A stretch of DNA of 64,000 bases, taken from the NCBI GenBank assembly GCA_016182095.1, contig JACOXY010000010.1, positions 334 to 64,333 on the forward strand. Direction: 5' to 3'. The translations under genes and the position numbers were made by a program. Positions 3,963-37,611 of the stretch are shown here, piece by piece (position 1 is the stretch's first letter; each line of letters opens with the position of its first letter). Below the pieces are notes generated by a model. The model was given only the letters and a program-made list of their open reading frames with translations, had not been told where the DNA came from and did not search any database. The DNA comes from Candidatus Liptonbacteria bacterium (lineage in GTDB: Bacteria > Patescibacteriota > Minisyncoccia > UBA6257 > JACOXY01).

Positions 3963-4523
3963 ATGGTCATAACTTATCACGACGAAACTTGTTTTAGAAT
4001 ACAAAGCGGCAATTTAAGTTTGGTGGTTGACCCGGTGAGCGAAAAGTTTAAATCCGATGTAACTATCAAAACCAATCTGGCGCTTCCTTATAATAAAACC
4101 GAAAAGGATTTGATCGTCGGGGCCGGAGAATATGAAATCAATGGCATTTCCATAAGAGGCACGCAGGCGAGCTACGACAAAAAGGCGGGGATTAAAACAA
4201 TTTTTGAAGTCGTCATGGAAAACATAGCTCTCGGTTTTTTTGGGAAAATTGACGCGAATCCCGAACCGGATCTGATTGAAAAACTGGGGAATTTGGAGAT
4301 AATTTTCCTGCCCGTCGGGAAAGGTTATTTGGATGAAAAGTCGGCGCTAAAAATAGTAAAACAGGTAAAGCCCAATATCGTAATTCCGTACCCCACAAAG
4401 GCAACAAAAGATTTTTTGGAAGAAATGGGCGGCAAGAGCGAAATTTCTGATAAATTAACCCTGAAAAAAAAGGATATTTTGGAGATGGGGGAGAAGATGC
4501 GGGCGGTATGCTTAAAAAGTTAA
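3963..4523 (+). CDS. Small MBL-fold metal-dependent hydrolase.
   Basis: 186 aa. N-terminal MVITYHDETCFRI...SLVVDP pattern fits short MBL-fold hydrolases. Confidence 0.4.
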   Translation: MVITYHDETCFRIQSGNLSLVVDPVSEKFKSDVTIKTNLALPYNKTEKDLIVGAGEYEINGISIRGTQASYDKKAGIKTIFEVVMENIALGFFGKIDANPEPDLIEKLGNLEIIFLPVGKGYLDEKSALKIVKQVKPNIVIPYPTKATKDFLEEMGGKSEISDKLTLKKKDILEMGEKMRAVCLKS

Positions 4524-4546
4524 AAATTAAAATGTAAAAATCAAAA

Positions 4547-4672
4547 ATCCCTCACTCAAGAAGGAGTTTGGGTCGGTTCTGGAAATCGTAATATTAATTA
4601 CCAACAATAAATTATTAAGATAAAATGAATTTTGAGAAGAAGCGGAAAATGCTCCTTCTTGAGTGAGGGATT
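4547..4672. mobile_element. MITE-like element, family F1 copy 1. About 125 bp with 20-bp perfect terminal inverted repeats ATCCCTCACTCAAGAAGGAG.
   Basis: Terminal inverted repeats read directly. About 92% identical to the copy at 52903-53027. An inverted, more diverged copy lies at 44021-44144. Confidence 0.6.
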
Positions 4673-5052: not shown

Positions 5053-8000
5053 ATGAGGGAAAATAAAAATGAAAATAAAATAGTATCCAAAGCGGAACCA
5101 CGCGAAATAACCACTGAACTCAAGGAGTCTTATCTTGATTACGCGATGTCGGTCATAGTTTCGCGCGCCTTGCCGGATGTCCGCGATGGCTTGAAGCCGG
5201 TACACAGAAGAATTTTGTGGGCCATGTGGGACATGGGGCTTACGCATGGAGCTAAATTCAGAAAATCTGCGAATGTCGTTGGATCCGTCCTCGGCGCGTA
5301 TCATCCGCACGGCGACTCATCCGTGTATGACGCAATGGTGCGATTAGCGCAACCCTTTTCCATGCGCTACCCGCTAATCGAGGGGCAGGGTAACTGGGGA
5401 TGTTTTACCAAGGATACCGAAGTAAAACTTGCAGATGGGCGGAACTTGAGCTTTGGAAAACTCATTGAAGAAGATGCTCGAGGAAAAACCAACTATACAT
5501 ACACGGTCAATAGTTTAGGGTTAATATCGGTGGCAAAAATAGAAAAACCAAGAGTTACAAGAGGTGACGCCGAGCTTATTAGAGTTACACTTGATAATGG
5601 CATCGAGATAAAATGCACCCCAGACCATCGCTTTATGTTAAGAGATGGGAATTATAAAGAAGCTCAGTATTTAACGCCACAAGATTCATTAATGCCGCTT
5701 TATGAAAAGTTGTCCGAAAAAACTGATAGATTAAACATATCAAATTTGATTAGATATGAAATTAGAAATAACCACCGCGTTACTAAAATCGAAAAATTAT
5801 CAGAGAAAGAAGACGTTTACGATCTTACGGTCTCTGGTTCGCACAACTTTTCTTTGGGGGCGGGCATTTTCGTACACAACTCGGTCGACGGGGATTCTGC
5901 GGCGGCGATGCGCTATTGCGTTACGGGCGATACTTTAGTTGTTACGGAAAATGGCCTGCAAAAAATTAAAGACATGCCGGGTAAAACTGATAATTTTGAG
6001 CAGGACATAAATATTAAAATCCTTTCTAGGGAGAAAAAAATCCACAAAGCCAGCAAATGGTTTGATAGTGGAGAGCATCCTACTTTAAAAGTAACAACGA
6101 GCCGCGGCCATCAAATAGAAGGATCATATAATCATCCTTTGCTAACTTTAAATAAAAATGGGAGTGGAAAACCAACATTTCAATGGAAAACTCTTGAACA
6201 GCTTACTGCTGGCGACATAGCGGTTCTGGATCGTTCAAGCGATGTTTTGTGGCCGGAAAAAGAAGTTGCTTTAGATAAATTTTATCCAACTGGCCTGCAT
6301 AATAGAACTGAAAGAAAAAAAATGCCGGCGCGCCTTGATGAGAATCTAGCTTTTATAATCGGCGCCATTATAGCAGAGGGGACTACCAGCAGAAAGAAAA
6401 TTGAGTTTTGCAATAGCGACCTAGAATTTGTTGCTGAATTCGAAAAAAGGTGGGCAAAAGTTTTCCCAGACTGCAGAATTCATAAATTTATTAAACAGCC
6501 CTCATCTTATGGGAAGAAAGAATATTGTCGCTTAGAAATTCATTCTCTTTGTGTGGTTTCATTTTTACACAATCTCGGTCTCAATATCGCCACTTCAGCA
6601 TTTAAAACAATCCCGGAACCAATTTTGCAGTCCCCTAAAAATGTAGCGGCGAGTTTTATTAGGGCTTATTTTGAGGGAGACGGCTCAATATCAAACTCTG
6701 ACAAAATGATTGAGCTTAGTAGCTGTTCCATAAGTAAAAAACTAACTGATGAGCTACAGGTTTTGTTGTTAAAATTTGGCATTGCCGCCACCAAAAGGTT
6801 CGATTCTTACAGAAATAACCATAAATTATACATCCGTGGAAGAAAAAATTATTTAGTATTTGCTGAAAATATAGGATTTGTTTCTGCGCGCAAAAATAAT
6901 AGGTTAAAAAACGTTCTAGGACATTATTTAAAGTTTGCCGCCCCGACAGATTTTATTCCTTATCTAACTGGCTATGTAAGAACATTTGTTGCCATGCCAA
7001 GAAGCGCCGATAGGCAGTTTATTCTCAAAAATAACTTTGATCGGTATCATTATTTGGAGAAAAACGGGGGTAGGGTAGCGCTTGCGGTGCAAGCCACGAC
7101 TGGCTTAAATCTTGAACCCCTATTCAGATCTTTTCTCGGCAATAATTATCTTTTTGATCCTGTGGCCAGCATTGAAAAAACGGGGGTCCAAAAAGTTTAT
7201 TCAATCAGGGTGGATAGTGAATGTCATTCCTTTATTGCGAATGGTTTTATTAATCACAATACAGAGTGCCGCCTCTCTAAAATTGCCGAGGAACTTTTGG
7301 GAGACATAGAAAAAGAAACTGTGGAGTGGCAGCCAAACTATGATTCAAGCCGCGAGGAGCCGAAGGTTTTGCCGTCTAAATTTCCCAACTTGCTCGTGAA
7401 CGGCGGTATGGGTATAGCAGTCGGCATGGCGACAAGCATTCCTCCCCATAACTTGAGCGAAGTGGCGGATGCCGCGGTAAAACTTTTGGATCATCCCAAA
7501 ACCAGCATCTCCGAAATAATGGAGATAGTTAAAGGGCCCGACTTCCCAACCGGCGGGATAATTTATGACCGAAAAAACATAAATGAAGCTTATGCCCTAG
7601 GCCGCGGTTCAATAACCACGCGGGCGCTCGCTGAAATTTCCGAAAAAAAGAGCGGCCAATATGTGATCGTCATAACCGAAATTCCATATCAGGTTAATAA
7701 ATCGGAGTTGATAATCAAAATCGCCGAACTAATCCAGGAAAAAAGAATTGAGGGCGTGAGAGACGTGCGCGATGAATCCGATAAAGACGGCCTCCGAATA
7801 GTAATAGAGCTGAAGAGCGACGTCTCGCCGCAAAAAATCCTAAACCAGCTTTACAAAAACACAGATTTACAGAAAGACTTCCACCTTAATTTGATCGCGC
7901 TTCAAGATCGTGGAATTCAGCCCCAGCTTATGTCTTTGAAAGACATGCTGGAGCAGTTTATCGATCACCGCAAAGAAGTTGTGCGCCGCAGAGCGGAGTT

Positions 8001-9351
8001 TGACCTTAAAAAAGCCAAGGAAAGGGCGCATATTTTGGAGGGACTCGCTAAGGCGCTATCGGTTATTGATAAAATAATCGCCACCATCAAGAAGTCGGGC
8101 GACAAAGAAGAGGCGCATAAAAATTTAATCAAGAATTTCAAGCTTACCGACATACAAGCGACGGCTATCCTCGAAATGCGCCTGCAAACTTTGGCGGCCT
8201 TAGAAAGGCAAAAGATTGAGGACGAGCTAAAGGAAAAACTGAAATTAATAAAAGATTTGGAGATATTGCTTAAGAGCCCCGAAAAAATAAAGGGGGTTAT
8301 TAAGGACGAACTCCAAGAAATGCGGGAAAAATTCGGTGACGAAAGAAGAACCAAAGTAGTGTCAGGCGGGCTGAAGGAGTTCAAAGAAGAAGACCTGGTA
8401 CCGGAAGAAGAAACCGTGATAACCCTTTCCGCGGGCGGGTACATAAAGAGAAGCAATCCGGGAGATTTTAAGGTACAAAAGCGGGGCGGCAAAGGGATAA
8501 TAGGAGGCGATGTCGGTGAAGAAGATTTTGTGCGCCACTTTGTGAGCGCCGTAACTCATGACAACATTTTATTCTTTACCACGAGCGGCAAGGTTTTCCA
8601 AACTAAAGTTTATGAAATACCTGCGGCTTCAAGAACATCAAAGGGAAAGGCCATACATAACTTTTTAGAAATCCCCACCTCCGAATATGTAAGCGCTATT
8701 ATTGCATATCCATCCAACACGCAAAATCAAGAAACCGCGGCATCGGGCTTCCTTGTTATGGTCACCGAAGGCGGCGTTATCAAAAAAACCAAAATTGCCG
8801 ACTTTGAAAATGTCAGAAAAAGCGGCATTATCGCCATTAAATTAAGAAGCGGCGACAAACTCAAATGGGTGGGGTTATCTGAAGCCGGGAACGACATTCT
8901 TATCGCCACCATGAACGGCCAGGCGATCAGATTCAAAGAAAAAGATTTGCGCCCCATGGGGAGGGCGGCAAGCGGCGTTACCGCCATAAGGTTAAAAAAG
9001 GGCGATAAAGTAAATGCCATGGAAATAATTAGAGGAGGAAAAGAGACGCGAGAAACACAGCTCCTCGCGGTTATGGCTAACGGTTACGCCAAGCGCACCC
9101 CCTTAAAAGAATATAAGGTGCAAAGGCGGGGCGGCTCCGGGATTAAAACAGCCAAAATAACGGCAAAGACCGGCTCCATAGTGGCGGCAAGAGTTATAAC
9201 CGAGGAAGAAGAACTTCTGGCTCTTTCAACTAAGGGCCAGATAATCAAGACCTTAATCAAGGATGTGCGCATAGCCGGCCGCGCCACGCAAGGAGTTAGA
9301 ATTATGTCGCTTAAAGCCGGAGATAAAGTGGCGGGGATAGTGTGTCTGTAG
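5053..9351 (+). CDS. gyrA: DNA gyrase subunit A, interrupted by two inteins. Extein total is ~824 aa.
   Basis: GyrA motifs are all present: [37 protein letters not shown]|..|[12 protein letters not shown]|..|[13 protein letters not shown], and the C-terminal beta-pinwheel repeats. Confidence 0.9.
5401..5880 (+). other. Mini-intein (160 aa, no endonuclease domain). Inserted between GQGNWG and SVDGD. Starts with Cys, ends His-Asn, with Ser at +1.
   Basis: CFTKDTEV...GIFVHN|S. The flanking exteins reconstitute the conserved GyrA GN(F/W)G-S(V/I)DGD motif. Confidence 0.7.
5917..7260 (+). other. Intein (448 aa) with a LAGLIDADG homing-endonuclease domain, at the canonical GyrA intein site (AAMRY|C...HN|TE). 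It lies only 12 extein residues after intein 1.
   Basis: CVTGDTLV...FINHN|TECR. LAGLIDADG-like blocks [13 protein letters not shown] and [12 protein letters not shown]. Same insertion point as the mycobacterial GyrA intein. Confidence 0.75.
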
Positions 9352-9396
9352 AAACTGAAATTCAAAAATCAAAATGCAAAATGCAAAATTTAAGAT

Positions 9397-9446: not shown

Positions 9447-10793
9447 ATGCCTTTTACTCTAACTCGCAACCGCATCATCATCATATTTTTAGTACTTGCT
9501 TTAATTGCCGGGGTTTTTATTGCGGTGCTTCTGGGCAAAAGAATTTTTGTGGGTAAAGCTACTGTGTCTTTAACGGTTTGGGGGGTTTTTGATGACAATA
9601 AGGCGATGGAAAAGGCGATCGCGCTTTACAAAAGCGAAAATCGCAACTTAAGCATCCAGTATGTAAACAAAGCATACGCGCTTGACGACGCCGAAAGTTA
9701 TGAAAAAGAACTTTTGGATGCCCTGGCATCCGGTAAAGGACCGGACATTTTTATGTTTCACAACACTTGGCTTCCAAAACATATTGAAAAAATTGCTCCG
9801 CTTAACGAAGAATTGCAAACCGCGCTCAATTTCCCGTTTGTTAATTATCGTGATGCCTTTCCCAAAGTAATTGAGCAGGATTTCGTGCGCGGCACCACAA
9901 TTTACGCAAGCCCCCTGTATCTGGATACTCTGGCTCTTTTTTACAACAAAGATTTTTTTGATAAAAGGGGCGTGGCGCTTTTGCCCGCCACCTGGGGCGA
10001 ATTTGAAAGCTTGGTTAATAAGATAAAAGAGGTGGATGCTGGCACAAATAACATCACAAAAGCCGGCGCGGCCATAGGCGGCTCGGAAAAAAGCATTAAC
10101 AGAGCCACTGATCTTTTGAGTCTCATGATGCTACAGCGAGGCGTAAAATTCACCGATAGCTCCTTCGGCAGGGCCACATTTGCGAGCATTGGCGGCGAAT
10201 CCGGGTCTAGACCGGGATTGGAAGCGCTTAAATTTTATACCCAGTTTGCAAATCCAAACTCACCTCTTTATACCTGGAATGAGCGCCTGCATTATTCCAT
10301 TGATAGTTTCGCATCAGGAGATACCGCCGCTATCTTCAACTACGCCCACCAAATCCCGGTTATTAAATCCAAAAATCCATTCCTTAATTTTGGCGTCTCG
10401 TCTATGCCACAATTAGCCGGCGCCCCAAATCCCGTAAACTATGCCAACTATTGGGGCCTCGCGGTTTCTAACCAAAGCAAAAATATTCCTTGGGCGTGGC
10501 AATTCATCTTGTCCGCCACTACTAAAGAAAAAATCGCGGGAAGTTATGCCGAAAAGGCGGGAAAGCCGCCGGCGCTACGCACACTAATAGACAAGAGCCG
10601 CAACGATCCCGAGCTTGGAGTTTTCGTGAAGCAAGCGCTAACGGCCAGTTCCTGGCCGCAGATAGACAATGTCCTCGTGGAAACCGCCTTTTCCGACATG
10701 ATAGACGCCGTGGTGCGCGGCCAGCTTACACCCGAAGTGGCGCTAAACAAGGCGGCCGACGAAATATCGGCAGTAATGAGAAAAAAACAGTAA
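9447..10793 (+). CDS. Membrane-anchored extracellular solute-binding protein (SBP family 1 / MalE-like). No adjacent permease or ATPase genes.
   Basis: N-terminal TM, then a sequence typical of ABC-type sugar-binding proteins (GPDIFMFHNTW, WGLAVS). Confidence 0.55.
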   Translation: MPFTLTRNRIIIIFLVLALIAGVFIAVLLGKRIFVGKATVSLTVWGVFDDNKAMEKAIALYKSENRNLSIQYVNKAYALDDAESYEKELLDALASGKGPDIFMFHNTWLPKHIEKIAPLNEELQTALNFPFVNYRDAFPKVIEQDFVRGTTIYASPLYLDTLALFYNKDFFDKRGVALLPATWGEFESLVNKIKEVDAGTNNITKAGAAIGGSEKSINRATDLLSLMMLQRGVKFTDSSFGRATFASIGGESGSRPGLEALKFYTQFANPNSPLYTWNERLHYSIDSFASGDTAAIFNYAHQIPVIKSKNPFLNFGVSSMPQLAGAPNPVNYANYWGLAVSNQSKNIPWAWQFILSATTKEKIAGSYAEKAGKPPALRTLIDKSRNDPELGVFVKQALTASSWPQIDNVLVETAFSDMIDAVVRGQLTPEVALNKAADEISAVMRKKQ

Positions 10794-10805: not shown

Positions 10806-11699
10806 ATGAAAAAAACTTATCGCTTTAAATTAGCTCTTATTCTATTGGTTTTGGCAGTCATCCCAATTCTCGCAAACGCCCAATCCATCATAAATCCCGA
10901 CGAGTGTTCAGGAATTTTTGATTTCATCCCGGCCGATAAAGCCAGATACTGCACTCTGTGCGACGGACTGCAAGCGGTAAAAAATGGATTGCTACTGCTT
11001 TTGAAAATTGGTGTGGGGCTCGCCGTGATAATCATTGCTTACGGCGGAGTGCTTATTATGGTTTCGGGCGCAAGTCCCGGCAAATTTGAGCAAGGCAAAA
11101 AAGCGATTATTGGTTCCGTGGTTGGGGTCGCGATCGGCGCTATGGCATGGATCATCATCAATCAAATTTTCTTCATCTTTGTAACGCAAAGCGTAACTCT
11201 GCGTCCCTGGAACGATATCCCCTGTCCCCAAGAACCGCCGAGATTTGGAGCATCATTGGGAGGCACTGGCGGCCCTGGGGGCACTGGCGGCACAGGTGGA
11301 ACAGGCGGTACGGGCGGCACAGGAGTATCTGTAACTGACAACGCCAGAGTAAAAGCTCTATTAGACCCCAGTATTCGATATAACAATAATTCATGCCCAC
11401 CAACCTGTGTGGGGGGATTGCCACAAACCACCATAGATAAGTTAAACACGCTACAGGCGCAGTGCGGGTGCGTTGAAATTACCGGCGGCACAGAACCAGG
11501 CCACGCCTCTCATGGACCAGGCCTTGCTGTCGTTGATATTCGTTACAATCAAAGGGCAATTGATGGTTTGCGAAACATGGGCTACTCCGAAAGCAACTTT
11601 GGAACTGGCTACACCTGTGAACCGGCAGGAGGGAATACTGGCGGAACAAGGGTTCTGTGCAACAGCGGGCGCGCGGATAAAATGCATGTGGAGTTCTAG
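10806..11699 (+). CDS. VirB2/TrbC-like pilin paralog 1: signal peptide, hydrophobic helix pair, GGT-rich linker (GGTGGPGGTGGTGG...) and Cys-rich C-terminal domain.
   Basis: Signal peptide plus LLLLLKIGVGLAVIIIAYGGVLIMVSGASPGKFEQGKKAIIGSVVGVAIGAMAWIIINQIFFIF two-helix hairpin, typical of conjugative-pilin-type subunits. Confidence 0.45.
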   Translation: MKKTYRFKLALILLVLAVIPILANAQSIINPDECSGIFDFIPADKARYCTLCDGLQAVKNGLLLLLKIGVGLAVIIIAYGGVLIMVSGASPGKFEQGKKAIIGSVVGVAIGAMAWIIINQIFFIFVTQSVTLRPWNDIPCPQEPPRFGASLGGTGGPGGTGGTGGTGGTGGTGVSVTDNARVKALLDPSIRYNNNSCPPTCVGGLPQTTIDKLNTLQAQCGCVEITGGTEPGHASHGPGLAVVDIRYNQRAIDGLRNMGYSESNFGTGYTCEPAGGNTGGTRVLCNSGRADKMHVEF

Positions 11700-11975
11700 A
11701 ACCCATCTCAAAAGTATATTCAAGCCGCGTTCTTAGCAATTTTTCAGGTATCCGCAAGGCACGACGAGGAAGGTGTAGCCTATGCGCTACTCCGACGAGG
11801 AGTAACGAAGCGGAACCTGAAAAATTGCAAGAACCCATTCGGGATACGGCCAATTTCTGTCTGATACTTTGTCGCTTCGGGCTTAATGTATCTAAAGATA
11901 CACCTTCGCCCTTGCTCCTCGTACAGACAGAAATTGGCCTGTATCGCGGCCGAAGATACTTTTGAGATGGGTTCT
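11698..11975. mobile_element. 278-bp non-coding element with 20-bp perfect terminal inverted repeats (AGAACCCATCTCAAAAGTAT) and two nested internal inverted repeats. MITE-like or structured RNA, lying between pilin genes 1 and 2.
   Basis: Terminal inverted repeats at 11698-11717 and 11956-11975. Inner inverted repeats ggatacggccaatttctgtctg / cagacagaaattggcctgtatc and cgacgaggaaggtgta / tacaccttcgcccttgctcctcg. Confidence 0.55.
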
Positions 11976-11994
11976 AATTTGATACAATATAAAA

Positions 11995-12513
11995 GTGATA
12001 AGTAATATAAATTTTAAAAACTTTCTTCTTTTGGCCGTTTTTTCTTCTTGGTTATTTTACGCGTTGTTTTTCAGCGCCGCACTGCAGGTGTTCGCCGCCT
12101 GCACCACCAATGCTGACGGAACTATAAGCTGTGACACACCAGGCGAGGTCCCGTCTGGCGCGACAAATTGCACATCAAATGCCACGGGGGGCGTCACCTG
12201 TGGCACTGCGGGGAGCACAGGGAATAATTCGGGTAGTCAAGGACAGGGCACAAGCAGGGTTACGATTGACCCCCCATTCTCGGGAACTCTCTTGCAGGTT
12301 TTGGAGCGCATTGCCAACTTTCTTATCTTAATCGGCGCGCCCATCGCCACCATCATGATTCTTTATGGTGCGTTTCAAATTTTGACAGCCGGCGCCAAAT
12401 CTGAACAGTTCACTAAAGGCAAAAATACTATTATTTACGCGGCGGTCGGCTACGGCATCATAATAATCGCCAGAGGAATCACGTCCATTGTGGTAGATCT
12501 GATTACGGGATGA
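11995..12513 (+). CDS. VirB2/TrbC-like pilin paralog 2 with Cys/Thr/Gly-rich N-terminal extracellular segment.
   Basis: Signal peptide, Cys-rich region, then helix pair LLQVLERIANFLILIGAPIATIMILYGAFQILTAGAKSEQFTKGKNTIIYAAVGYGIIIIARGI. Confidence 0.45.
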   Translation: MISNINFKNFLLLAVFSSWLFYALFFSAALQVFAACTTNADGTISCDTPGEVPSGATNCTSNATGGVTCGTAGSTGNNSGSQGQGTSRVTIDPPFSGTLLQVLERIANFLILIGAPIATIMILYGAFQILTAGAKSEQFTKGKNTIIYAAVGYGIIIIARGITSIVVDLITG

Positions 12514-12575
12514 TTGCTGCTGCAAGTATCATGTATCAGGTATCAAGTGAGTGAAATTAATTTTAATTTACTCAT

Positions 12576-12604
12576 TGTACATGACACATGACACATGACA
12601 CATG
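12576..12604 (+). repeat. Tandem heptanucleotide repeat (CATGACA)x4 overlapping the start codon of pilin paralog 3.
   Basis: catgacacatgacacatgacacatgaca read directly. Every unit carries an ATG and the 7-nt unit shifts frame, so copy-number change would move the start codon (candidate slipped-strand phase switch). Confidence 0.6.
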
Positions 12605-12928
12605 ACACAATTCAAATATCTCGCTCAATCCGCCGTTTCTCCTACCAATGACTTATCGGGAATCCCAATCGTGAACCTTGACTCCGATGATGTGTACAGA
12701 ATTTTGATAGATTTCGCGAATTGGATGTTTATCGTTTTTGTGCTCGTGTTTGTAGTGCTGGTTCTTTTCGCCGCTTTTAGATTCCTTACCGCTTCCGGAA
12801 ATGAAAGTAAAATTAAAGATGCTTATAAGGCATTTTGGTTTGCCATAGTGGCGCTAGTTATAGCTCTACTTGCGACAGGAATAGTAGCGTTAGTAAACCA
12901 GCTTATTTATGGGAGTAGGGGGGGGTAG
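12602..12928 (+). CDS. VirB2/TrbC-like pilin paralog 3 (108 aa). The gene ends in a G8 homopolymer.
   Basis: Helix pair MFIVFVLVFVVLVLFAAFRFLTASGNESKIKDAYKAFWFAIVALVIALLATGIVALV. The 3' end (tat ggg agt agg ggg ggg tag) contains the poly-G run at about 12918-12925. Confidence 0.45.
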   Translation: MTQFKYLAQSAVSPTNDLSGIPIVNLDSDDVYRILIDFANWMFIVFVLVFVVLVLFAAFRFLTASGNESKIKDAYKAFWFAIVALVIALLATGIVALVNQLIYGSRGG

Positions 12929-13155
12929 GCCAACCAGAATTAAGGTGGGCCTGCTATGACCCAGAAACAGGAAAGGCTATTGGCGGCGCGATTGGAGAAG
13001 CGGGATTGGATAACTGCAACGCCAATTGCCCAAGAGACTGCGCTTTATGTGAACCAGACGGAGGAGTCGATTGTGAAAATTAGAATTTGCTTAATATGTT
13101 ATAATATAGATAACATTAAACATGAAAGGTCGGATTTAATAATGAAATGTAAAAT

Positions 13156-13518
13156 ATGAAGAGTCTTAAAGCAAATATCGTGACGGGCCTTGCTGCTGGT
13201 TTAGCGGCGTTCCCGGCGCTTGCGGGCGCGCAGGTAGATAGTTTCGGCGCCATAGTCAATGTAATTCAAAGAGCGATTTCCTGGATATTCGCGCTATTTA
13301 TACTTTTGGCGGTTGTTTTCGTTCTTTACGCCGCTTTTAAGTATTTGACTTCAAGAGGCGATTCAGGAAAGGTTGGCGAAGCAAGCCAGGCGCTAATTTA
13401 CGCGGCAGTTGCAATCGGCGTGGCGCTCATTGCGGCGTCCATCCAATTCATAGTCGCGGAGCTCTTGGGATTAAATTCCGTAGAATTAGTAATTCCTGAC
13501 CCGTTTTTTATCCAATAA
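13156..13518 (+). CDS. VirB2/TrbC-like pilin paralog 4 (120 aa).
   Basis: Signal peptide (AFPALAGAQ), then ISWIFALFILLAVVFVLYAAFKYLTSRGDSGKVGEASQALIYAAVAIGVALIAASIQFIV. Confidence 0.45.
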   Translation: MKSLKANIVTGLAAGLAAFPALAGAQVDSFGAIVNVIQRAISWIFALFILLAVVFVLYAAFKYLTSRGDSGKVGEASQALIYAAVAIGVALIAASIQFIVAELLGLNSVELVIPDPFFIQ

Positions 13519-13545: not shown

Positions 13546-13590
13546 GCGTTACCGAGCGCATAACACATGTTATGTGCTCGGTTTTGTTTT
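13546..13590. terminator. Bidirectional intrinsic terminator (14-bp stem CCGAGCGCATAACA/TGTTATGTGCTCGG, loop CATG, T-tract) between convergent genes.
   Basis: Hairpin plus ttttgtttttat read in the sequence. Confidence 0.55.
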
Positions 13591-15493: not shown

Positions 15494-15577
15494 GCTGGGG
15501 TGGCGAAATGGCAGACGCACCAGCTTTAGGAGCTGGCGCCGCAAGGCGTGGAGGTTCAAATCCTCTCCCCAGCACCA
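15494..15577 (+). tRNA. tRNA-Leu (anticodon TAG). Class II tRNA with long variable arm and encoded CCA.
   Basis: Folded by hand: acceptor GCTGGGG/CCCCAGC, D-arm GCG..GG..CGC, anticodon stem CCAGC/GCTGG with loop TTTAGGA, variable arm CGCCGCAAGGCGT, T-arm GGAGG TTCAAAT CCTCT, discriminator A + CCA. Confidence 0.85.
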
Positions 15578-17251: not shown

Positions 17252-18199
17252 CTATCTTCTCTTCCCATGGAAAGCTTTATGCACTTCTTTAAGGCCCTTG
17301 TTCGTGATGTGAGTATAAACTTGGGTGGTTGCGATATTCGCGTGCCCCAAAAGTTCCTGCACCGAGCGCAAGTCGGCTCCGTTTGTTAAGAGGTCGGTCG
17401 CGAAAAAATGCCTCAACATATGCGGAGTTATGCGATCTTGAACGCCAATTTGTTTGGCATAACCGTCAACCATTCTTTGGACCGCGCGAGATGTAATTCG
17501 CCCAATTACTTTTTCGCGCCTATTTGACCTATTAGACTCATTAGACTGGTGGGGCTTATTATTTTTATTCAGCGCCGGGTTGCCAGCGGCAAAACTTACA
17601 AACATCGCCTCTTCCGCGTCTTCCCTGCGATCAAGATAATTTTTAATTGCTTTTTTTGCTACATCCGCAAAAAAAACCACGCGAATTTTGTCTCCCTTGC
17701 CGCGCACACTTAACTCTCCGCGGTCTAAATTAATATAGCGGTTCAGGGCACACAATTCTGATAAGCGCAGCCCGGTAGAAAATAGTGTTTCCAAAATCGC
17801 CTTATCCCGCAAACCGCGAAGCGTTCCCGTGTCCGGCGCCCCCAAAAGAGATTTCAAATCCCGCTCGTCAGGAATATCAATTTGCCGCGATGGAGTCTTA
17901 GGAAGCTCAATTTTATCGGGAGATAAAACTTTTAAATCACGCTTGATTAAATACTTCAAAAAATTGCGAAGCGCTATTATATAATAAGCCTGGGTATTTT
18001 TTTTAATTTCTCTTCTCGCGAGCCAAAGTCTGAAGTTTCTGATTAGCTCTGCGTCTATATCTCTTACCGATTTTAGCTTGGACCACCCTAAAAAGATTTT
18101 TAGATATCGCCCATAATTTTCCTGTGTTTTTATGGATCGTCCTTTTTCAATCTCTAAATAATCCAGATATTCGTTTAGGTATTTCTCCGCTTCGTTCAT
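17252..18199 (-). CDS. xerC: Tyrosine site-specific recombinase, XerC/XerD family. Carries an in-frame N/K/S-rich low-complexity insertion.
   Basis: N-terminal SAM-like domain (YLDYLEIEKGRSIKTQENYGRYLKIF) and catalytic domain with R..HxxR..Y (HMLRHFFATDLL, LLGHANIATTQVYTH). Confidence 0.7.
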   Translation of the reverse strand: MNEAEKYLNEYLDYLEIEKGRSIKTQENYGRYLKIFLGWSKLKSVRDIDAELIRNFRLWLARREIKKNTQAYYIIALRNFLKYLIKRDLKVLSPDKIELPKTPSRQIDIPDERDLKSLLGAPDTGTLRGLRDKAILETLFSTGLRLSELCALNRYINLDRGELSVRGKGDKIRVVFFADVAKKAIKNYLDRREDAEEAMFVSFAAGNPALNKNNKPHQSNESNRSNRREKVIGRITSRAVQRMVDGYAKQIGVQDRITPHMLRHFFATDLLTNGADLRSVQELLGHANIATTQVYTHITNKGLKEVHKAFHGKRR

Positions 18200-23164: not shown

Positions 23165-23246
23165 CGATCTAATCGTTCTAGTCGTTCTATCGCTGTTTAT
23201 ATTTGCGATTATAACGTTTATAACGCTATAACGGCTACAACGCACC

Positions 23247-24779: not shown

Positions 24780-25091
24780 ACTTAAGCCCTCTACGAGGAC
24801 GGTCCTCGTAGAGAATGGTTTATTTCACAAAAGGGTTCGGGAACCACTTTGTGAAATAGTTGAAAACGCGTTGCGAGGTAAAATTAAAAATTTCAAGGCT
24901 TGCCGACAAAGCTGTATCCGGTGCGATACAGCGAGGAGACATAACACAGAAATTTTTAATTTTAACCGCAACCCAAAGAGATATGCCAATTTAAAAGAAT
25001 CGCGGTGTTGCCCCTCGTCGTCGTATCACTGGGGATACGCCGTCCTCGTCACGTCTTGCGCTTCTTTTAAATTGGCTATATCGCGCCTCAA

Positions 25092-26099
25092 CTATTTCAC
25101 AAAGGGGTTCCTAGCTCCCTCAACTTCAAAATGCAAATGACATCCCGTGCTACCATGCACATTGCCGGTATTCCCGATTTTGGCAACCTGCGCGCCTTTC
25201 TCAATAAAATCACCCATCTGAACCAGATTTTCTTTGGTGTGAGCATAGGTTGTCTTAGTGCCGTTATTATGTTCTAAAACCACAAAGCCGCCATATCCGG
25301 AGTTCCATTTATCAGGACTACCAACTTTTAGAACCAAGCCGTCGGCTGATGCATAGACAGGGGTGCCGCAAACATTCGCTATATCCACGGCATTCGCTTG
25401 ATGCAAAACTCCCCAGTTCCAGCTATTTAAGAGTGCCGGAAAACCGAAAAATCCAACAATGGAAGGCAACTGCGGCAAAGAGCTTATGATAGAAGCCAGA
25501 GTTCTTTGGGGCTTACCGCTCGGGATAATGAGTGACGTGCCAGCTTTTAGTTCCAGGGAATTTTCAATCTTATTCGCCGATTTTATTTTTGAAACATCAA
25601 CCCCAAAGACAGAAGCAACTGACGCAAGCGTGTCGCCATCTTTAGTTTTATAAAGCACTCCGGAAACCGGCAAAATAATAAGTTCTTCATCAATACTTAA
25701 AACACCGCGGCCGATTTTAGGATTGGCCCAAAGAATAGTATTAACGGATATGCCAAATTGAGCTGCTATTTTGGAAAGATTGTCGCCAGACCGAACCCGA
25801 TATACCATAAGACCATTTTGCACCTCGGTTCCCCCGCCAAAAACAGAGCCCCTGTTATAGACAGAGGCGCTCGCCTCTGAAATTAGCCCACGCCCCCCTT
25901 CGCCCCCCAACCCCATTCCCTCGGTCGGAGCGCCTGGATTCTGGAGAGCATACAAAACCACTGATTCATCCCCAGAATTAATGTAGAAAGCGCCATCCGC
26001 AGGACCGCCAAAAACGCCGTTTCGCAAAATATCGGCCGAGGCAGAATTAAGAACCGCGTTCAGAGTTAAAACCGCAAAAACAAGAACGCTTACAAACAA
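25092..26099 (-). CDS. Secreted LysM-domain + M23 family metallopeptidase.
   Basis: LysM (YRVRSGDNLSKIAAQFGISV, YKTKDGDTLASVASVFGVDV) and M23 motifs (HNNGTKTTYAH, GNTGNVHGSTGCHLHFE). Confidence 0.8.
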   Translation of the reverse strand: MFVSVLVFAVLTLNAVLNSASADILRNGVFGGPADGAFYINSGDESVVLYALQNPGAPTEGMGLGGEGGRGLISEASASVYNRGSVFGGGTEVQNGLMVYRVRSGDNLSKIAAQFGISVNTILWANPKIGRGVLSIDEELIILPVSGVLYKTKDGDTLASVASVFGVDVSKIKSANKIENSLELKAGTSLIIPSGKPQRTLASIISSLPQLPSIVGFFGFPALLNSWNWGVLHQANAVDIANVCGTPVYASADGLVLKVGSPDKWNSGYGGFVVLEHNNGTKTTYAHTKENLVQMGDFIEKGAQVAKIGNTGNVHGSTGCHLHFEVEGARNPFVK

Positions 26100-26183: not shown

Positions 26184-26311
26184 TATAATGCGAAACTACG
26201 AATGAATCATGCCTATAGCCTGTCGGCTCGGCCGATTAAGGCGAAACTTGCGAATAAGAGATTTGCCCTTTTCGCGTATTTCGCATGAGTTTATTAGCAC
26301 ATTTCGCATTA
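26184..26311. mobile_element. Repeat family F2 copy 1. About 128 bp. Core ATGCCTATAGCCTGTCGGCTCGGCCGATTAAGGCGAAA, ends carry ATAATGCGAAA inverted repeats.
   Basis: Core is identical in three places (26208, 40668, 44908). GCGAAA/TTTCGC-rich flanks read directly. Confidence 0.6.
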
Positions 26312-31015: not shown

Positions 31016-31825
31016 ATGCGTTACATCAAATTATTCGGCATTTTGACGCTTGTTTCAGCAAGCGCAAGTTTTGTTTTGTTTCTTTTTTCCTATAATTTAT
31101 CGGCTTTGACAGCTGAAAATTCAAAAAAACAAACAAAATCTTCGCTGGAAGAGAATTTCACGTCCATCGTAAAGCAAACCGGCCTAAATAATAAAATAGG
31201 CTCAACTAAGGTTGCGCCAACGGAAAATTATAAGAAAGAAGAGAATCTTACGCAATCCTTTATTGAAGAGCTAACTAATGAGATTGTAACCAAAAATCCC
31301 GCGGGTGTCGCCACAATAGACGGGGAACTGTCTTTGGTCGCTCCCAACGAAATATCTATAAGTGACTTCGCGGCCAAGAATAGCAAACTTATTGATTGGC
31401 GTAATTTTATACCTAAAATTTCCGATAAAGACATAAAAATAACATCCATAAATTCATCCAAGGAATACAAAAAATATCTAACTTCTCTGTACGGCATTAT
31501 CAAAGAAACTCTTTCGGATACAAGCTCTGCAACCGAAACACAGCCAAAACAAAAAGATTATTATCAAACAGCGAACGCGGTAGTAAATAAGTATGAAAAC
31601 ACGATTCAGGCAGTCTACGCGCTTCCCACGCCCGAGGGCCTGAAAGAGTTCCATAAAAAAGAATTGGCGCTCCTGATAGCCCAAAAAAATGTTTATCAAA
31701 AAGTCAGCGGCGCCAAAAAAGATCCATTAAGCGCGCTTATCGCGATGCAAGCCAATAAAAAAATTGATGCCGCTTTTTCGGATCTCAAAAAGGAGCTAAA
31801 AACAACCATAGAAAACACCCTTTAA
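31016..31825 (+). CDS. Secreted/membrane-anchored hypothetical protein. First gene of the T4SS-like locus.
   Basis: N-terminal signal/TM (LFGILTLVSASASFVLFLF). Lys/Glu-rich, no recognisable domain. Confidence 0.3.
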   Translation: MRYIKLFGILTLVSASASFVLFLFSYNLSALTAENSKKQTKSSLEENFTSIVKQTGLNNKIGSTKVAPTENYKKEENLTQSFIEELTNEIVTKNPAGVATIDGELSLVAPNEISISDFAAKNSKLIDWRNFIPKISDKDIKITSINSSKEYKKYLTSLYGIIKETLSDTSSATETQPKQKDYYQTANAVVNKYENTIQAVYALPTPEGLKEFHKKELALLIAQKNVYQKVSGAKKDPLSALIAMQANKKIDAAFSDLKKELKTTIENTL

Positions 31826-31836
31826 CCACGCGCAAC

Positions 31837-33330
31837 ATGAGTAATAAAAATTTTTTCTATATTTTAACAGCCGCAATAGCCATAGCGATAATGCTCGCGG
31901 CTCTGCCCGCAAATAAAGCGAGCGCCCAACTGCACAACATTGAATTTGACGCTTCAAACGGCTGTGACGAGGCGCATGGCGGAGGTGGCGGTGATTTTGT
32001 GCCGGTCTGCGAAGTAAATCCCCGCATCGTTTTGCCAAGCCGGCCGGACTACACATTTATAGATGATCTGATATTTATGGCAACCGATGACCCACAGGGG
32101 CTTTCGGAAATATTGCAACAAGGGGGACTGCCCGGGGAACTCCAATCCGACATGAGTATTTTGGGAAACCTGCAGAACTTGAATATGTTTTTCTTATTTG
32201 ACGAGTTTATATTCAAGTACATCAAAGAGCAGTTTAAGCTTCAGGCGATTGATACTATGGCCAATCAGGCGACTCAATGGGTTACAGGTGACGGAGAAAA
32301 CCCCCAGTTTATACAAGACTGGGAATCATATTTGTCCAACGCTTATGATATCGGGTACTATTCAGTGCCTAATGAGCTTGCGGTTGCGGAAGTTTGTCCT
32401 CAATTTAAAGATCAGCTAATATCCACAGTTGGCGGATCATTCCCGGAGTTCCCGGTTGATGAAGAGTCGCCATTTATAGACCAAATGCAGTGTACCTTAA
32501 ACAGCTTCCTTGAAAGCCAGGGCGGTTCGTATGACTTGTATCAAGAAGACTTCAGGAATGGCGGCTGGCTTGCCTATTCGGAGCAGTTATACAAACCACA
32601 AAATACTTATCTTGGATCGGTGTTCGCGTCTATTGATGAAGGACAGCGCAGGGCCGAGAGCAAACAGAACGCTATTGAACGCGAAGCCTTGGCAAGTAAC
32701 GGCTACCTTCCAATAAAAAGATGCTCTAGGGCTTTGCCTTCCATTTCCAATCCTTTCACGGCGTCACCCACAGAATGCTTAGAGTATCAGGTAACTTCAC
32801 CGGCATCGGTGTTTGAGAGCGCGCTTGATGCTTCAGTGCAGAGCCGATTTAACTATGTGGTAAACGCCGATCAATATATGGAGTTCCTGAATGTACTGCT
32901 GAATTCTTTTACCAATAAGCTAAGCGCGGCCGGGAGCGGCGGACTGTATGATTATGGCAGAGAAGCGGCAGAGGATGTTGGCGGAGTTAGCGGTGGATAT
33001 TTAGGAACACCAGAGCAAATGCCGCCGTCTGGAGAGGCGGGGCTTCGCTGGGCGTGTTATGACGCCATAAGCGGTAATAGCATTGGCTCCACCTTTAATG
33101 ATCTTGATGCCTGCCGGGCGCAAACAACCTGCGGAACGACTCCGGCCCGTTGCGGACTTTGCATGCCGGAAGGCGGAGTTGATTGTTCGGGAGATGAGTT
33201 TTATCCTCTGCCGGGAGAACTGATGGGAGCCGAGCCAATATGGCCGGAAATAGCGGACGAGGGCGCCCAGCCAATATGGCCGGAGGATTGGATACAGTGG
33301 CTATTAGATTTGTTTAATTGGTTTTTATAA
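31837..33330 (+). CDS. Secreted Cys-containing hypothetical protein (497 aa) with tandem C-terminal EPIWPE repeats.
   Basis: Signal peptide (AALPANKASAQ). GAEPIWPEIADEGAQPIWPEDW near the C-terminus. Confidence 0.3.
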   Translation: MSNKNFFYILTAAIAIAIMLAALPANKASAQLHNIEFDASNGCDEAHGGGGGDFVPVCEVNPRIVLPSRPDYTFIDDLIFMATDDPQGLSEILQQGGLPGELQSDMSILGNLQNLNMFFLFDEFIFKYIKEQFKLQAIDTMANQATQWVTGDGENPQFIQDWESYLSNAYDIGYYSVPNELAVAEVCPQFKDQLISTVGGSFPEFPVDEESPFIDQMQCTLNSFLESQGGSYDLYQEDFRNGGWLAYSEQLYKPQNTYLGSVFASIDEGQRRAESKQNAIEREALASNGYLPIKRCSRALPSISNPFTASPTECLEYQVTSPASVFESALDASVQSRFNYVVNADQYMEFLNVLLNSFTNKLSAAGSGGLYDYGREAAEDVGGVSGGYLGTPEQMPPSGEAGLRWACYDAISGNSIGSTFNDLDACRAQTTCGTTPARCGLCMPEGGVDCSGDEFYPLPGELMGAEPIWPEIADEGAQPIWPEDWIQWLLDLFNWFL

Positions 33331-33386
33331 AGGCGAGCATTAAAAGCGATTAGGCTTTTAAATATAATCAATACGCGACTCTACCC

Positions 33387-35558: not shown

Positions 35559-35569
35559 TTTAATAATAT

Positions 35570-36784
35570 ATGCCCCATAAATTAATAGACATACCGCAAG
35601 AAATTAGGGTTTGGTTAGCGTCAGAGGCCGCCACACAGCACATCGTGTTTATAAATAAACAGTTTGCTTTTGTTGAGGAAAAAATGAGAATAATACCTAT
35701 TTTGTTATTTCAGCTGACATCAAAAGAAATCCAACCGCAAGATTTTGTAAGTGAACTAAGCGACTGGTTAGATGTGAGCTCAGAATCCGCAAGGACACTC
35801 GCAAGAGAAATTGAAGAAAAAATTTTAGAGCCGATCAAGAGACCTCTTTTAAACTGGGGCATTGATATAAGCCTGATAAAAATAGGGGCTTTGAGTGAAG
35901 AGCTACGCCCAATCATTGCGCCCCCGCCTCCTTTGCCCCCCGACTTGCCCCCCGAAGCCTCGGCGAAGGGGGGAGCTTTAGCGCAGGAGGGCGCCACCAC
36001 ACCCAAAATATCAATATTCCCTTCTGCGAGTGAACCCCAAAAATCCTACACCCCTCCGCCGCCACCCGCCCCGGGGAAAAGTTTTGAGCCGTCATTTATG
36101 GGTGGCGCTCCGCGCACAGAAGATCTTGGCGCAAAAAAAATAAGGGCAATTGGCGGCACCCATGGCATTGGGGAAGAAAGTGAGCGCGAGGATAAGTCCT
36201 TCGGCGAAGCTCAGGACAAGCCCTTTATTATTCATAAGGAACCCTCGTTAGAGCCGGTTTCTAAAGATTTGCCATACGCAATCCCGTCCATCCCAAGCTC
36301 GCAAAACGAACAAAAAAACATACCAAGGCCGGATTTAGTGGCGCGCGCAAGAGAAGGGCAAACTCCGTGGCAGGATTTGATTCCCAAAAAAGAGCACTCC
36401 TCTCACGCTAAGGAAAAGCCCTTCGGCGAAGCTCGGGGCAAGCCCGTAGTCCTACCGCCCAAGCCAGTCGGAAAGAATTTAAGAGAACAAACACCACACA
36501 ATAATCCGGATTTAGCGGAACAAGCAAAACCAAGAAAAGAGGTGAGGCTCCCGGAGTCATCTTTTAAGATCGTGCATTATGACGAAGAAGAGCTGGCCGC
36601 AAAAGAGAAATTTAAAGCTATACCAAAACCAAGCGCCCCCCTAGACGGAACGTTAAGGGGCGAGCATTCTGTAAAACAGAATGTTTTAGCCAAGCCAGCC
36701 GATCTGCCAATGTTGCCCGATAAAGATGTTCATAAAAATAAACCCGGGCCCAAAGTTAAGGGGAATATGGTAGACCTTAGGTAA
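35570..36784 (+). CDS. Pro-rich protein with internal KPFGEA(Q/R)(D/G)KP repeats. No TM.
   Basis: PPPPLPPDLPPE and PPPPPAPG tracts. DNA-level ~30-nt repeat near 36193-36240 and 36417-36460. Confidence 0.3.
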   Translation: MPHKLIDIPQEIRVWLASEAATQHIVFINKQFAFVEEKMRIIPILLFQLTSKEIQPQDFVSELSDWLDVSSESARTLAREIEEKILEPIKRPLLNWGIDISLIKIGALSEELRPIIAPPPPLPPDLPPEASAKGGALAQEGATTPKISIFPSASEPQKSYTPPPPPAPGKSFEPSFMGGAPRTEDLGAKKIRAIGGTHGIGEESEREDKSFGEAQDKPFIIHKEPSLEPVSKDLPYAIPSIPSSQNEQKNIPRPDLVARAREGQTPWQDLIPKKEHSSHAKEKPFGEARGKPVVLPPKPVGKNLREQTPHNNPDLAEQAKPRKEVRLPESSFKIVHYDEEELAAKEKFKAIPKPSAPLDGTLRGEHSVKQNVLAKPADLPMLPDKDVHKNKPGPKVKGNMVDLR

Positions 36785-36796
36785 ATTTGCCTGTTG

Positions 36797-37598: not shown

Positions 37599-37611
37599 AA
37601 TCAACACGTTC

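Follow-up and report, generated by a model that had tools for sequence, protein, structure and literature searches.

This locus of a Parcubacteria-group CPR bacterium, from a “Candidatus Liptonbacteria” MAG, is probably a core-genome cassette of VirB2-like pilins, in which an orphan solute-binding protein (SBP) is followed by four divergent T4SS_pilin paralogs. It is one more case of a kind already described, the chromosomal arrays of divergent T4SS pilins in Patescibacteria, and adds testable details for Parcubacteria. VirB2-like pilin arrays are essential in the one genetically tractable member of Patescibacteria, “Ca. Southlakia epibionticum” ML1, whose array has six pilins (Wang et al. 2023, as cited in PMC12857230). 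The GenBank annotation at the locus reads “hypothetical protein.” Within the window, i.e., the whole 64-kb stretch of DNA that was analyzed, the array is laid out as follows:

9447 to 10793, plus strand: membrane-anchored solute-binding protein (SBP_bac_1/SBP_bac_8; Pfam, 77 bits)
10806 to 11699, plus strand: paralog 1, 297 aa (PF18895, 32.0 bits)
11995 to 12513, plus strand: paralog 2, 172 aa (PF18895, 40.6 bits)
12602 to 12928, plus strand: paralog 3, 108 aa (PF18895, 33.7 bits)
13156 to 13518, plus strand: paralog 4, 120 aa, the final gene of the array (PF18895, 31.5 bits)
13551 to 13582, plus strand: terminator-like hairpin at the end of the array, a 14-bp stem and then TTTGTTTTT (T-run)

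All four paralogs score above the gathering cut-off of the Pfam T4SS_pilin family (PF18895; 26.6 bits), which bears out the original prediction of VirB2-like pilins behind a solute-binding protein. The search that had been proposed there, with the TrbC/VirB2 model (PF04956), finds none of the four array ORFs at E ≤ 1, and in related arrays it yields only subthreshold matches (E = 0.014 to 0.048). A patescibacterial VirB2 array has been defined as two or more pilin genes of low mutual identity, in tandem or with at most one nonpilin gene between them (PMC12102498); here, four pilin ORFs stand in succession, with hairpins that are 13 to 35% identical in pairwise comparisons. The exact paralog 4 protein is present on five Logan contigs. 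No ABC permease or ATPase is found among the ORFs scanned in the window, which makes the SBP an orphan.

The same window carries a T4SS gene cluster, about 18 kb from the pilin array as measured to its VirB6/VirB3/VirB4 genes:

31016 to 43137, plus strand: T4SS gene cluster adjoining dnaA (46043), recognized by Pfam matches and by an orthologous cluster in a relative
ORF31837, plus strand, in the cluster: ORF with a Cys module at 33031 to 33186 (translation, homology to the tail described below)
33387 to 35558, plus strand: VirB6/TrbL-like gene (TrbL, 17.7 bits, below the cut-off)
36915 to 37598, plus strand: PrgI/VirB3-like gene (PrgI, 29.7 bits)
37771 to 38418 and 38424 to 40136, plus strand: split VirB4 (P-loop_TraG/AAA_10, 83 bits)
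ORF40648, plus strand: secreted protein with an in-frame G9 run at 41090 to 41098 (translation)
41455 to 42210, plus strand: fifth pilin, the C terminus of which is a Cys-rich tail (PF18895, 27.8 bits)

The T4SS machinery expected in the genomic context of PF18895 is therefore present, in the form of VirB4, PrgI/VirB3, and a weak TrbL. A Kyte-Doolittle scan shows an N-terminal hydrophobic stretch and two helices in paralogs 1, 2, 4, and 5, and two hydrophobic helices without the N-terminal stretch in paralog 3 and its ortholog. A signal peptide is accordingly predicted for paralogs 1, 2, and 4 but not for paralog 3, so that the combination of signal peptide and two-helix hairpin, ascribed in the original prediction to all four ORFs, appears in three of them. 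Their description as four small ORFs likewise fits except for paralog 1, which has a 125-aa C-terminal domain. The apparent lack of a signal peptide in paralog 3 is atypical for VirB2-type pilins.

It is highly improbable that these ORFs encode unrelated two-helix membrane proteins, for example holin-like ones, that match PF18895 through their hydrophobic composition. The PF18895 matches are modest (31 to 41 bits) and lie over hydrophobic helices, TrbC/VirB2 is unmatched, and paralog 3, used as the query of a word search through the entire database, returned nothing. However, all five paralogs exceed a curated cut-off, a loop motif (Y/F-x-A-F-x-Y/F-L-T-x-G) is shared, PF18895 arrays recur in more than 20 genomes, one member is called “pilin” by NCBI, the T4SS cluster in the window has a PF18895 gene of its own, and phage lysis genes were not found adjacent to the array. 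Polymerization of the PF18895 proteins of this clade is a prediction.

VirB2-like pilin arrays of 2 to 11 genes with ∼25% identity have been described in Patescibacteria (Quinonero-Coronel et al. 2025, PMC12102498), as have T4SS clusters near dnaA (PMC12102498, PMC12857230). The present locus resembles them in its tandem PF18895 genes of low identity and in its monoderm-type T4SS (VirB4, VirB6, PrgI/VirB3) near dnaA, with no relaxase seen in the window. In contrast to the arrays of PMC12102498, it is located about 18 kb from virB4, behind gyrA and the orphan SBP. Several divergent VirB2 copies are also a feature of Bartonella and Anaplasma, whose virB2 paralog arrays are thought, as cited in PMC12102498, to diversify the surface that is exposed or to broaden the range of hosts. 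Those, however, are diderm MPF-T systems with TrbC/VirB2-type pilins, the family that is unmatched here.

The order gyrA-SBP-pilin array is kept in about 20 Parcubacteria genomes, and pilin ORFs lie directly 3′ of the SBP homolog in 20 of the 20 related CPR loci in which the downstream DNA is retained. The array is a fixed core-genome cassette. PMC12102498 makes no mention of this synteny, of fusions between pilins and enzyme domains, or of the Cys tail behind a frame break (see below). The paralogs keep a conserved two-helix membrane hairpin and swap their exposed parts freely. These parts comprise Cys-rich modules, the Gly/Thr linker, and, on the first gene, an enzyme-like domain at the C terminus. 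The pilins would be inserted into the membrane, serve the T4SS whose genes lie 18 kb away, and be assembled into, or added as decoration to, a surface filament or channel for contact with host cells.

The exposed parts of the first two paralogs, and the gap between their genes, contain the following features:

11262 to 11320, plus strand: GGT-rich linker of paralog 1, an in-frame imperfect 9-nt repeat (TRF: period 9, 6.6 copies, 78% match)
11316 to 11696, plus strand: conserved C-terminal domain of paralog 1, without a Pfam family (alignments A3 and A4)
11697 to 11976, no strand assigned: structured intergenic element of 280 nt between paralogs 1 and 2, with a closing stem and two long hairpins

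Paralog 1 consists of a predicted signal peptide and short Cys motif, the T4SS_pilin hairpin (aa 65 to 119), a Gly/Thr linker, which is the GGT-repeat linker noted originally, and the C-terminal domain; its hydrophobic stretches are at positions 3 to 30, 58 to 91, and 99 to 132. Nine homologs are found at E ≤ 0.001, and PF18895 is matched by 10 of the 10 proteins, query included. The homologs have similar G/T/P linkers and share the C-terminal domain, whose consensus is C.C.V.ITGGTE.GH..HGPG...VDI ... HWH. This domain has no match among Pfam, PHROG, or PDB profiles, and the weak AF2 model obtained for it (pLDDT 62) has no match in Foldseek. It may be a candidate metal-dependent cell wall hydrolase. 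A LAS/M15-type zinc peptidase would be recognized by its likeness to the family in sequence or fold and by the zinc motifs H-x(n)-D and H-x-H. Two His and one Asp are invariant among the nine sequences of alignment A4, and HWH is found in most members of A3, paralog 1 itself having KMH. A likeness to LAS/M15 peptidases, for which the family databases give no match, may be seen in our reading of these motifs; a hydrolase activity of the domain is putative.

In related arrays, the same position of the first pilin is often occupied by an SLT (PF01464) or SLT_3 (PF18896) domain, in the manner of the T4SS cell wall hydrolases (VirB1 and the SLT domains of the PrgK/TcpG type). In contrast to those hydrolases, the domain is not a protein of its own but is joined to a pilin hairpin, and that of paralog 1 belongs to no detectable family. 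The peptidoglycan-cleaving SLT on the first pilin of the related arrays would supply a VirB1-like function. Fusion of the first pilin to a cell wall-cleaving or enzyme-like domain is common and may fill an otherwise missing VirB1 role.

Paralog 2 consists of a predicted signal peptide, the exposed Cys/Thr-rich segment, and the T4SS_pilin hairpin. Its ortholog in a relative has a hairpin that is 70% identical and is missing the Cys/Thr segment. Cys-rich exposed modules shift between the N and C termini of different pilins. The 280-nt element that precedes paralog 2 has 25-nt inverted arms and a predicted RNA fold of −146.8 kcal/mol (z = −14.8), and a sister copy is located at 24840 to 25111. 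It has no match in Rfam and no blastn match at the equivalent site of the relative, where the sequence is different.

Upstream of paralog 3 is another element:

12524 to 12609, plus strand: intergenic cis-element, with three copies of GTATCA (12526 to 12545), a 31-nt hairpin (12546 to 12576), and four copies of CATGACA (12580 to 12607)

TRF delimits the heptamer array at 12579 to 12609 (period 7, 4.4 copies, 100% match). The original prediction was right about the four copies and their overlap with the ATG, and its coordinates (12576 to 12604) are 3 to 4 nt off those of the perfect array (12580 to 12607). Each heptamer contains an ATG and a TGA; the ATGs are at 12581, 12588, 12595, and 12602, the last of which, in the final unit, is the start of paralog 3, and the TGAs close all three frames. 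The heptamer is nonrandom because no comparable repeat occurs in any of 100 dinucleotide-preserving shuffles (perfect tandem repeats of period 5 to 9 in at least 3.5 copies, 2 observed versus 0 in every shuffle). Four copies are also present in the relative L043. The core of the element is ∼93% identical there by our own count on the alignment (142/176 over the whole 176-column alignment), substitutions in the hairpin preserve pairing, and the remaining intergenic repeat arrays are not conserved. The flanking genes have dS values of 1.2 to 3.4, i.e., saturated synonymous sites. From this comparison, the heptamer looks like part of a constrained cis-element of 90 nt under strong purifying selection, which most likely acts on the mRNA to control how paralog 3 is initiated. 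One pilin would thus be controlled from an unusually conserved, repeat-bearing leader. No plus-strand promoter consensus was found across the element, and its fold z-score is only −1.3. Logan contigs break at 12580, which is explained by a 32-nt stretch common to the window and the co-occurring relative.

The other end of paralog 3 is marked by a homopolymer:

12918 to 12925, plus strand: G8 run, a frame junction (0 frame AG G GGG GGG TAG)
12925 to 13083, plus strand: hidden Cys-rich tail of 52 codons in the −1 frame, recognized by homology to Cys modules

The C terminus of paralog 3 (...GSRGG*) falls at the G8 run, the position of which had been predicted exactly, with a 0-frame stop immediately after the run and a −1-frame stop immediately before it. 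The orthologs of paralogs 3 and 4 in the relative are each 69% identical, with a dN/dS of 0.12 for paralog 3. The tail is 46% identical to residues 399 to 450 of ORF31837 (E = 6e−12; a tblastn search across the window also finds a homolog of the tail, at E = 1.6e−12) and 51% identical to a module of the pilin-like protein P0014 (E = 4e−12). It is intact, with 6 of the 6 Cys residues and no stops. A −1 shift would join it to paralog 3, as would an allele with G9 or G6. A profile search with the tail module among 1.84 billion proteins gives three matches only, and the relative has neither the G8 tract nor the tail. The tail could be dead, a switch, or a recoding site. Most likely, the G8 run marks a 1-nt frame break, caused by a fixed homopolymer deletion, by which paralog 3 has lost a Cys-rich tail that was formerly part of it, and the tail is presumably no longer expressed. 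An old pseudogene remnant would not be expected to be so intact, and the tail is equally compatible with a switch or a recoding site.

Programmed −1 frameshift sites are known in dnaX and in IS3-family transposases, and with these the G8 run shares the X XXY YYZ pattern, matched perfectly, a stop that follows at once, and a −1 frame that extends the protein. A fixed G8 might accordingly serve as a programmed −1 ribosomal frameshift or transcriptional-slippage site that sets the ratio of a major short pilin to a minor tailed one. The flanking 0-frame and −1-frame stops confine the shift window to the tract, the −1 frame is open for all 52 codons of a tail homologous to functional modules, and all six assemblies have G8, a constancy to be expected of a recoding signal and not of a switch. 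An 11-bp hairpin begins inside the tract or where it ends. However, it is not significant (z = −1.75) and lies 0 to 2 nt from the tract, whereas the stimulatory structure for −1 frameshifting is usually 5 to 9 nt downstream; the run consists of G only, the relative does not share the site, and the few matches to the tail module offer no second instance for comparison. We are not aware of any established −1 frameshift site in poly-G, and on balance recoding at this tract is quite unlikely.

The original prediction took the heptamer and poly-G tracts for the signature of a contingency locus with switchable subunits. In such a locus, slipped-strand mispairing at these tracts would switch paralog 3, its tail, and ORF40648, varying the filament surface. 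Well-known examples are the CTCTT repeats in the leader of Neisseria opa, the poly-G of pilC, and the 7-bp promoter repeats of Haemophilus hmw1A/hmw2A. Like these, the present locus has a heptamer 5′ of a surface protein gene and a poly-G within a reading frame; the perfect repeat lies over a start codon and is unmatched in the shuffles, G8 coincides exactly with the start of an out-of-frame tail that has homologs, and a +1 or −2 change there would give a sensible pilin-tail fusion resembling paralog 5. Moreover, another lineage (L015) has a perfect heptamer in 4.4 copies inside the signal peptide-coding region of its third pilin, a placement that resembles the opa design. In known loci of this kind, however, the copy number varies between and within strains and the units are usually far more numerous, four copies being few for a hypermutable tract, whereas here the number is the same across species-level, saturated divergence. 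The heptamer copy number cannot shift the frame of paralog 3 because the array sits at or before the start codon. The L015-type array, too, is equally long in three strains of 95 to 97% identity.

Tract lengths are constant in every comparison made. Among Logan assemblies of the strain of the window, which all come from one study (SRR121133xx to SRR121134xx) and as consensus assemblies hide minority alleles, G8 is unchanged in five, G9 in two, and C7 in three, each in agreement with the MAG. The products of G6, G7, G9, G10, or G11 alleles are absent among 15 billion proteins. The homopolymer tracts are not above chance because the observed counts of G/C runs with minimum lengths of 7, 8, and 9 nt (5, 2, and 1, respectively) resemble the shuffle means (5.9, 1.46, and 0.44), and G/C runs of at least 7 nt are missing from 19 of the 20 related arrays. 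A contingency locus is therefore very unlikely, and the result is a clear negative: in these genomes, short repeats beside surface genes call for variation data before they are taken for contingency loci. The joint reading, in which G8 is a working frame switch, by reversible slippage or by −1 ribosomal or transcriptional recoding, and the heptamer/GTATCA element is a new initiation control element of overlapping ATG/TGA minicistrons, is unlikely. If true, it would put a disulfide-rich tail on a fraction of the T4SS pilin subunits and would be the first recoding or phase mechanism described for a surface filament in an uncultivated member of the CPR.

The G9 run of ORF40648 was placed correctly at 41090 to 41098 in the original prediction. 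It is in frame, and a change in its length would truncate the ORF. The relative encodes the same residues, FRGGAS, without the run, as AGA GGC GGA GCA, and the run is no more than two ordinary Gly codons, side by side and in frame.

All four open reading frames that follow the solute-binding protein (SBP) gene exceed the Pfam gathering score of the T4SS_pilin family (PF18895; 26.6 bits), and their interpretation as pilins holds; none of them matches the TrbC/VirB2 (PF04956) HMM at E <= 1. These genes, the preceding SBP gene and the three repeat tracts of the original prediction are all present in the window, as is a type IV secretion cluster at 31-43 kb, immediately upstream of yidC, rnpA, dnaA and dnaN.

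Pilin genes, repeat tracts and T4SS genes of the window
9447-10793, SBP
10806-11699, paralog 1 (PF18895, 32.0 bits)
11995-12513, paralog 2 (40.6 bits)
12580-12607, heptamer array, perfect (CATGACA)x4 overlapping the ATG of paralog 3
12602-12928, paralog 3 (33.7 bits)
12918-12925, G8 run at the end of paralog 3
13156-13518, paralog 4 (31.5 bits)
31-43 kb, T4SS cluster: TrbL/VirB6-like protein (weak match, 17.7 bits)
31-43 kb, T4SS cluster: PrgI/VirB3-like protein
37771-38418 and 38424-40136, T4SS cluster: VirB4 as two ORFs, one for the N-terminal domain and one for the ATPase
41090-41098, G9 run in ORF40648
41455-42210, T4SS cluster: paralog 5, a PF18895 protein with a Cys-rich C-terminal tail

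The architecture of a signal peptide and a hairpin, previously assigned to all four ORFs, does not extend to paralog 3, which has two hydrophobic helices and no N-terminal signal peptide, and paralog 1, described as a small ORF, is instead a 297-aa multidomain protein. Pairwise identity among the hairpins of the five paralogs is 13-35%. The window derives from a Candidatus Liptonbacteria MAG, from a contig of 68 kb on which the locus tags run from HYT12_01465 to _01475 and the NCBI product name is “hypothetical protein” throughout. Arrays of 2 to 11 VirB2-like pilin genes, 441 in all, have been reported from 383 Patescibacteria assemblies, with a mean identity of about 25% and T4SS clusters near dnaA (Quinonero-Coronel et al., PMC12102498). 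The window locus matches them and is a further example of this already published kind of locus. A 2025 review (PMC12857230) describes the six-pilin array of “Ca. Southlakia epibionticum” as essential.

The split of VirB4 is kept in the relative (L045, 16261-16911 and 17394-19151), with a PDDEXK_3 gene between the two halves and 23S_rRNA_IVP genes inserted elsewhere in that cluster. Metagenome scans with the profile of paralog 4 and with that of the Cys module yielded nothing useful; one distant 1.5-kb contig (L048) is free of repeats. The motif GAAAGGTCG(G/A)A, located about 15-30 nt ahead of the last pilin gene, is conserved in three distant genomes.

Copies of the motif GAAAGGTCG(G/A)A
13130-13145, window
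10010-10025, syntenic locus of the relative (L043)
250-262, metagenome contig L048

With the SBP as anchor and one genome per species, 24 CPR loci were obtained (29-54% identity), and their ORFs were searched with an HMM built from the five window hairpins. Pilin ORFs directly follow the SBP on the same strand in 20 of the 20 loci that have DNA downstream of it, and complete SBP-adjoining arrays contain 2 to 8 of them. Pfam confirms PF18895 in all 10 ORFs tested from related arrays, 6 of which score at least 26.6 bits. About 20 genomes share the gene order S1-domain gene, Lactamase_B_3 gene, small ORF, gyrA, SBP, pilin array. Because of this gene order and the invariable position of the pilins after the SBP, the array is a fixed cassette of the core genome, not a mobile island. 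The ORFs scanned include no ABC permease or ATPase anywhere in the window, so the SBP is an orphan; PMC12102498 contains no mention of an SBP.

The product of the window gyrA (5053-9351) is 1432 aa long and contains two intein-like insertions (C...HN boundaries), and that of the relative, 1305 aa, matches Intein_splicing and LAGLIDADG_3. Downstream of the array lies a tRNA-Leu gene (15494-15577), within which two Logan contigs end; beyond it are unannotated ORFs and, on the minus strand, a tyrosine recombinase gene (17252-18199). This stretch may be an integrated element or may vary between strains.

The first pilin gene of related arrays is often long. It is fused to SLT (PF01464) in two loci (L014 and L025) and to SLT_3 (PF18896) in a third (L032). 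Another fused domain, which has no Pfam family, is found in paralog 1 of the window, the second gene of L014 and several database homologues, with a more divergent, poorly aligning version in L016 and L028. Its consensus, C.C.V.ITGGTE.GH..HGPG...VDI ... HWH, leads us to suspect a LAS/M15-type metallopeptidase. PDB sequence and profile searches, a PHROG scan and Pfam gave no assignment, and a word-indexed homologue search returned nothing. A single-sequence AF2 model of this domain is unusable (pLDDT 32), and a 10-sequence model (pLDDT 62) has no Foldseek match in PDB. Two adjacent long pilins of L014 (11413-12468 and 12564-13484) have a pilin part of ~150 aa that is identical by eye and differ at the C terminus, SLT versus the TGGTE...H-W-D domain, which looks like duplication followed by domain swapping.

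The heptamer array ahead of paralog 3 is delimited by TRF at 12579-12609 (period 7, 4.4 copies, 100% match). Each unit contains an ATG (12581, 12588, 12595 and 12602), and the start codon of paralog 3 is that of the last unit, so that copy number cannot alter the frame; all three frames close within the array because the unit also contains TGA. Two perfect repeats of this kind are found in the window and none in any of its 100 dinucleotide-preserving shuffles. At the syntenic locus (L043) of the relative, GCA_964616565.1, the SBP is 75% identical to that of the window in amino-acid sequence, paralog 1 54%, the paralog 2 hairpin about 70% and paralogs 3 and 4 each 69%, and synonymous sites are saturated (dS 1.2-3.4). 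The dN/dS of paralog 3 is 0.12; therefore, the gene is functional in both genomes. The core of the intergenic region between paralogs 2 and 3 is about 93% identical, and L043 keeps GTATCA x3, a 31-nt hairpin and exactly four CATGACA units, with the orthologue starting at the last ATG. Three substitutions in the hairpin preserve pairing or fall in the loop, and the remaining intergenic repeat arrays of the window are not conserved in L043. The same four copies despite saturated dS contradict the proposed hypervariable tract, and we conclude from this sequence comparison that the heptamer belongs to a putative constrained cis-element. A minicistron, MTHDT*, runs from the second ATG to a TGA overlapping the true ATG of paralog 3, and this layout is suggestive of control of initiation.

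No promoter consensus is found on the + strand at the heptamer, making a role as promoter spacer on that strand unlikely, and stable RNA structure across the paralog 3 leader is unsupported (z = -1.3). Viral contigs scanned for (CATGACA)3 yielded a single unrelated, CA-rich match. Three Logan contigs begin exactly at 12580. Alleles with at least five heptamer copies, which would make a k = 31 graph branch at this point, are rejected as the cause, since the relative is present in the same runs (L044, L046 and L047) and shares a 32-nt stretch across the array, diverging at the next base, which predicts an identical break. In another Parcubacteria array, that of L015, the third pilin gene has a perfect (CTTGTTG)x4.4 (10091-10121) within the part that encodes the signal peptide (LVACCLLLVAS), where a 7-nt change would shift the frame; arrays of this type are of equal length in three strains (95-97% identity).

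The G8 run closes paralog 3, whose 0-frame end reads AGT AGG GGG GGG TAG. In the -1 frame, a stop immediately precedes the run, after which 52 codons are open, VGQPELRWACYDPETGKAIGGAIGEAGLDNCNANCPRDCALCEPDGGVDCEN. This Cys-rich tail is similar to residues 399-450 of the T4SS-cluster protein ORF31837 (46% identity, E = 6e-12), with which all six of its Cys residues align, and to a module (51% identity, E = 4e-12) in the 549-aa database protein P0014, in which a pilin-like hairpin and an SLT-like end are likewise found. Either a change to G9 or G6 or a shift into the -1 frame would fuse the tail to the C terminus of the pilin, the architecture already present in paralog 5, and the fusion would carry the junction peptide ...LIYGSRGGVGQPELR. 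The junction is probably a fixed 1-nt deletion in the homopolymer. That the run is a reversible switch appears highly unlikely, as G8 is unchanged in five Logan assemblies and the MAG, the products of G6, G7, G9, G10 and G11 alleles are absent among 15 billion proteins that include the G8 product, and the relative has neither tract nor tail (87 nt versus 238 nt in the window). Recoding at this site would agree with the X XXY YYZ pattern of the run but is quite improbable, the downstream hairpin starting at the tract itself and not being significant (z = -1.75). Contigs of the window's strain came from runs SRR12113383, -384, -385, -420, -424 and -430.

The fused paralog 3 gave no matches in a word-indexed homologue search. 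A 67-aa ORF at 12956-13159 is likely spurious, as it is unannotated at NCBI, lacks a counterpart in the relative and overlaps the -1-frame tail.

The G9 run is in frame within an intact ORF and encodes FRGGAS; it is identical in two further assemblies, and the relative spells the residues of this region as AGA GGC GGA GCA. The window contains 5, 2 and 1 G/C runs of at least 7, 8 and 9 nt, respectively, versus shuffle means of 5.9, 1.46 and 0.44. Such runs are at chance level, G9 is statistically unremarkable, and nothing marks it as a switch. Related strains and assemblies offer no tract-length variation, with G8 and G9 unchanged and four heptamer copies in the relative, and the contingency-locus interpretation fails in each comparison made (assemblies, relative and protein databases). 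What is worth keeping is the conserved SBP-pilin cassette with its pilin-enzyme fusions, the strongly conserved leader, with its repeats, ahead of a pilin without a signal peptide, and the frame-broken Cys-rich tail of paralog 3.

Two intergenic elements of about 275 nt (11697-11976 and 24840-25111) align with each other and share an architecture in which a closing stem, GGAACC.../...GGTTCC, encloses two long hairpins. Their RNA fold z-scores are -14.8 and -9.7, and Rfam assigns no family at either threshold. The start of the first element is also the point at which Logan contigs of two samples end, suggesting that it is multi-copy or variable. A 71-nt repeat (75-93% identical) begins with TATAATGCGAAA and contains a GC-rich hairpin.

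Copies of the 71-nt repeat
26184-26254
40644-40714
44882-44952

Logan contigs break within this repeat, and one of the copies extends over the annotated start of ORF40648, whose true start is probably further downstream, as the orthologue alignment begins only at residue 38. Many intergenic regions are filled with degenerate 7-9-nt tandem arrays, located immediately ahead of TATAAT boxes or start codons.

Degenerate tandem arrays
2201-2254
2608-2634
9358-9389
23168-23243
37617-37751
52240-52310
57001-57033
59788-59815
61243-61279

Some of these are plant-telomere-like, (CCCTAAA)n, and one adjoins the ATG of ORF 61279. Unlike the paralog 3 heptamer, they turn over quickly, since these sites carry other arrays in the relative. 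Finally, a 151-nt repeat (87% identical) that contains the motif ATCCCTCACTCAAGAAGGAG is found in direct copies at 4521-4671 and 52877-53027, with 35-37-nt pieces inverted at a third site, 44020-44158; it is intergenic and adjoins gene starts.
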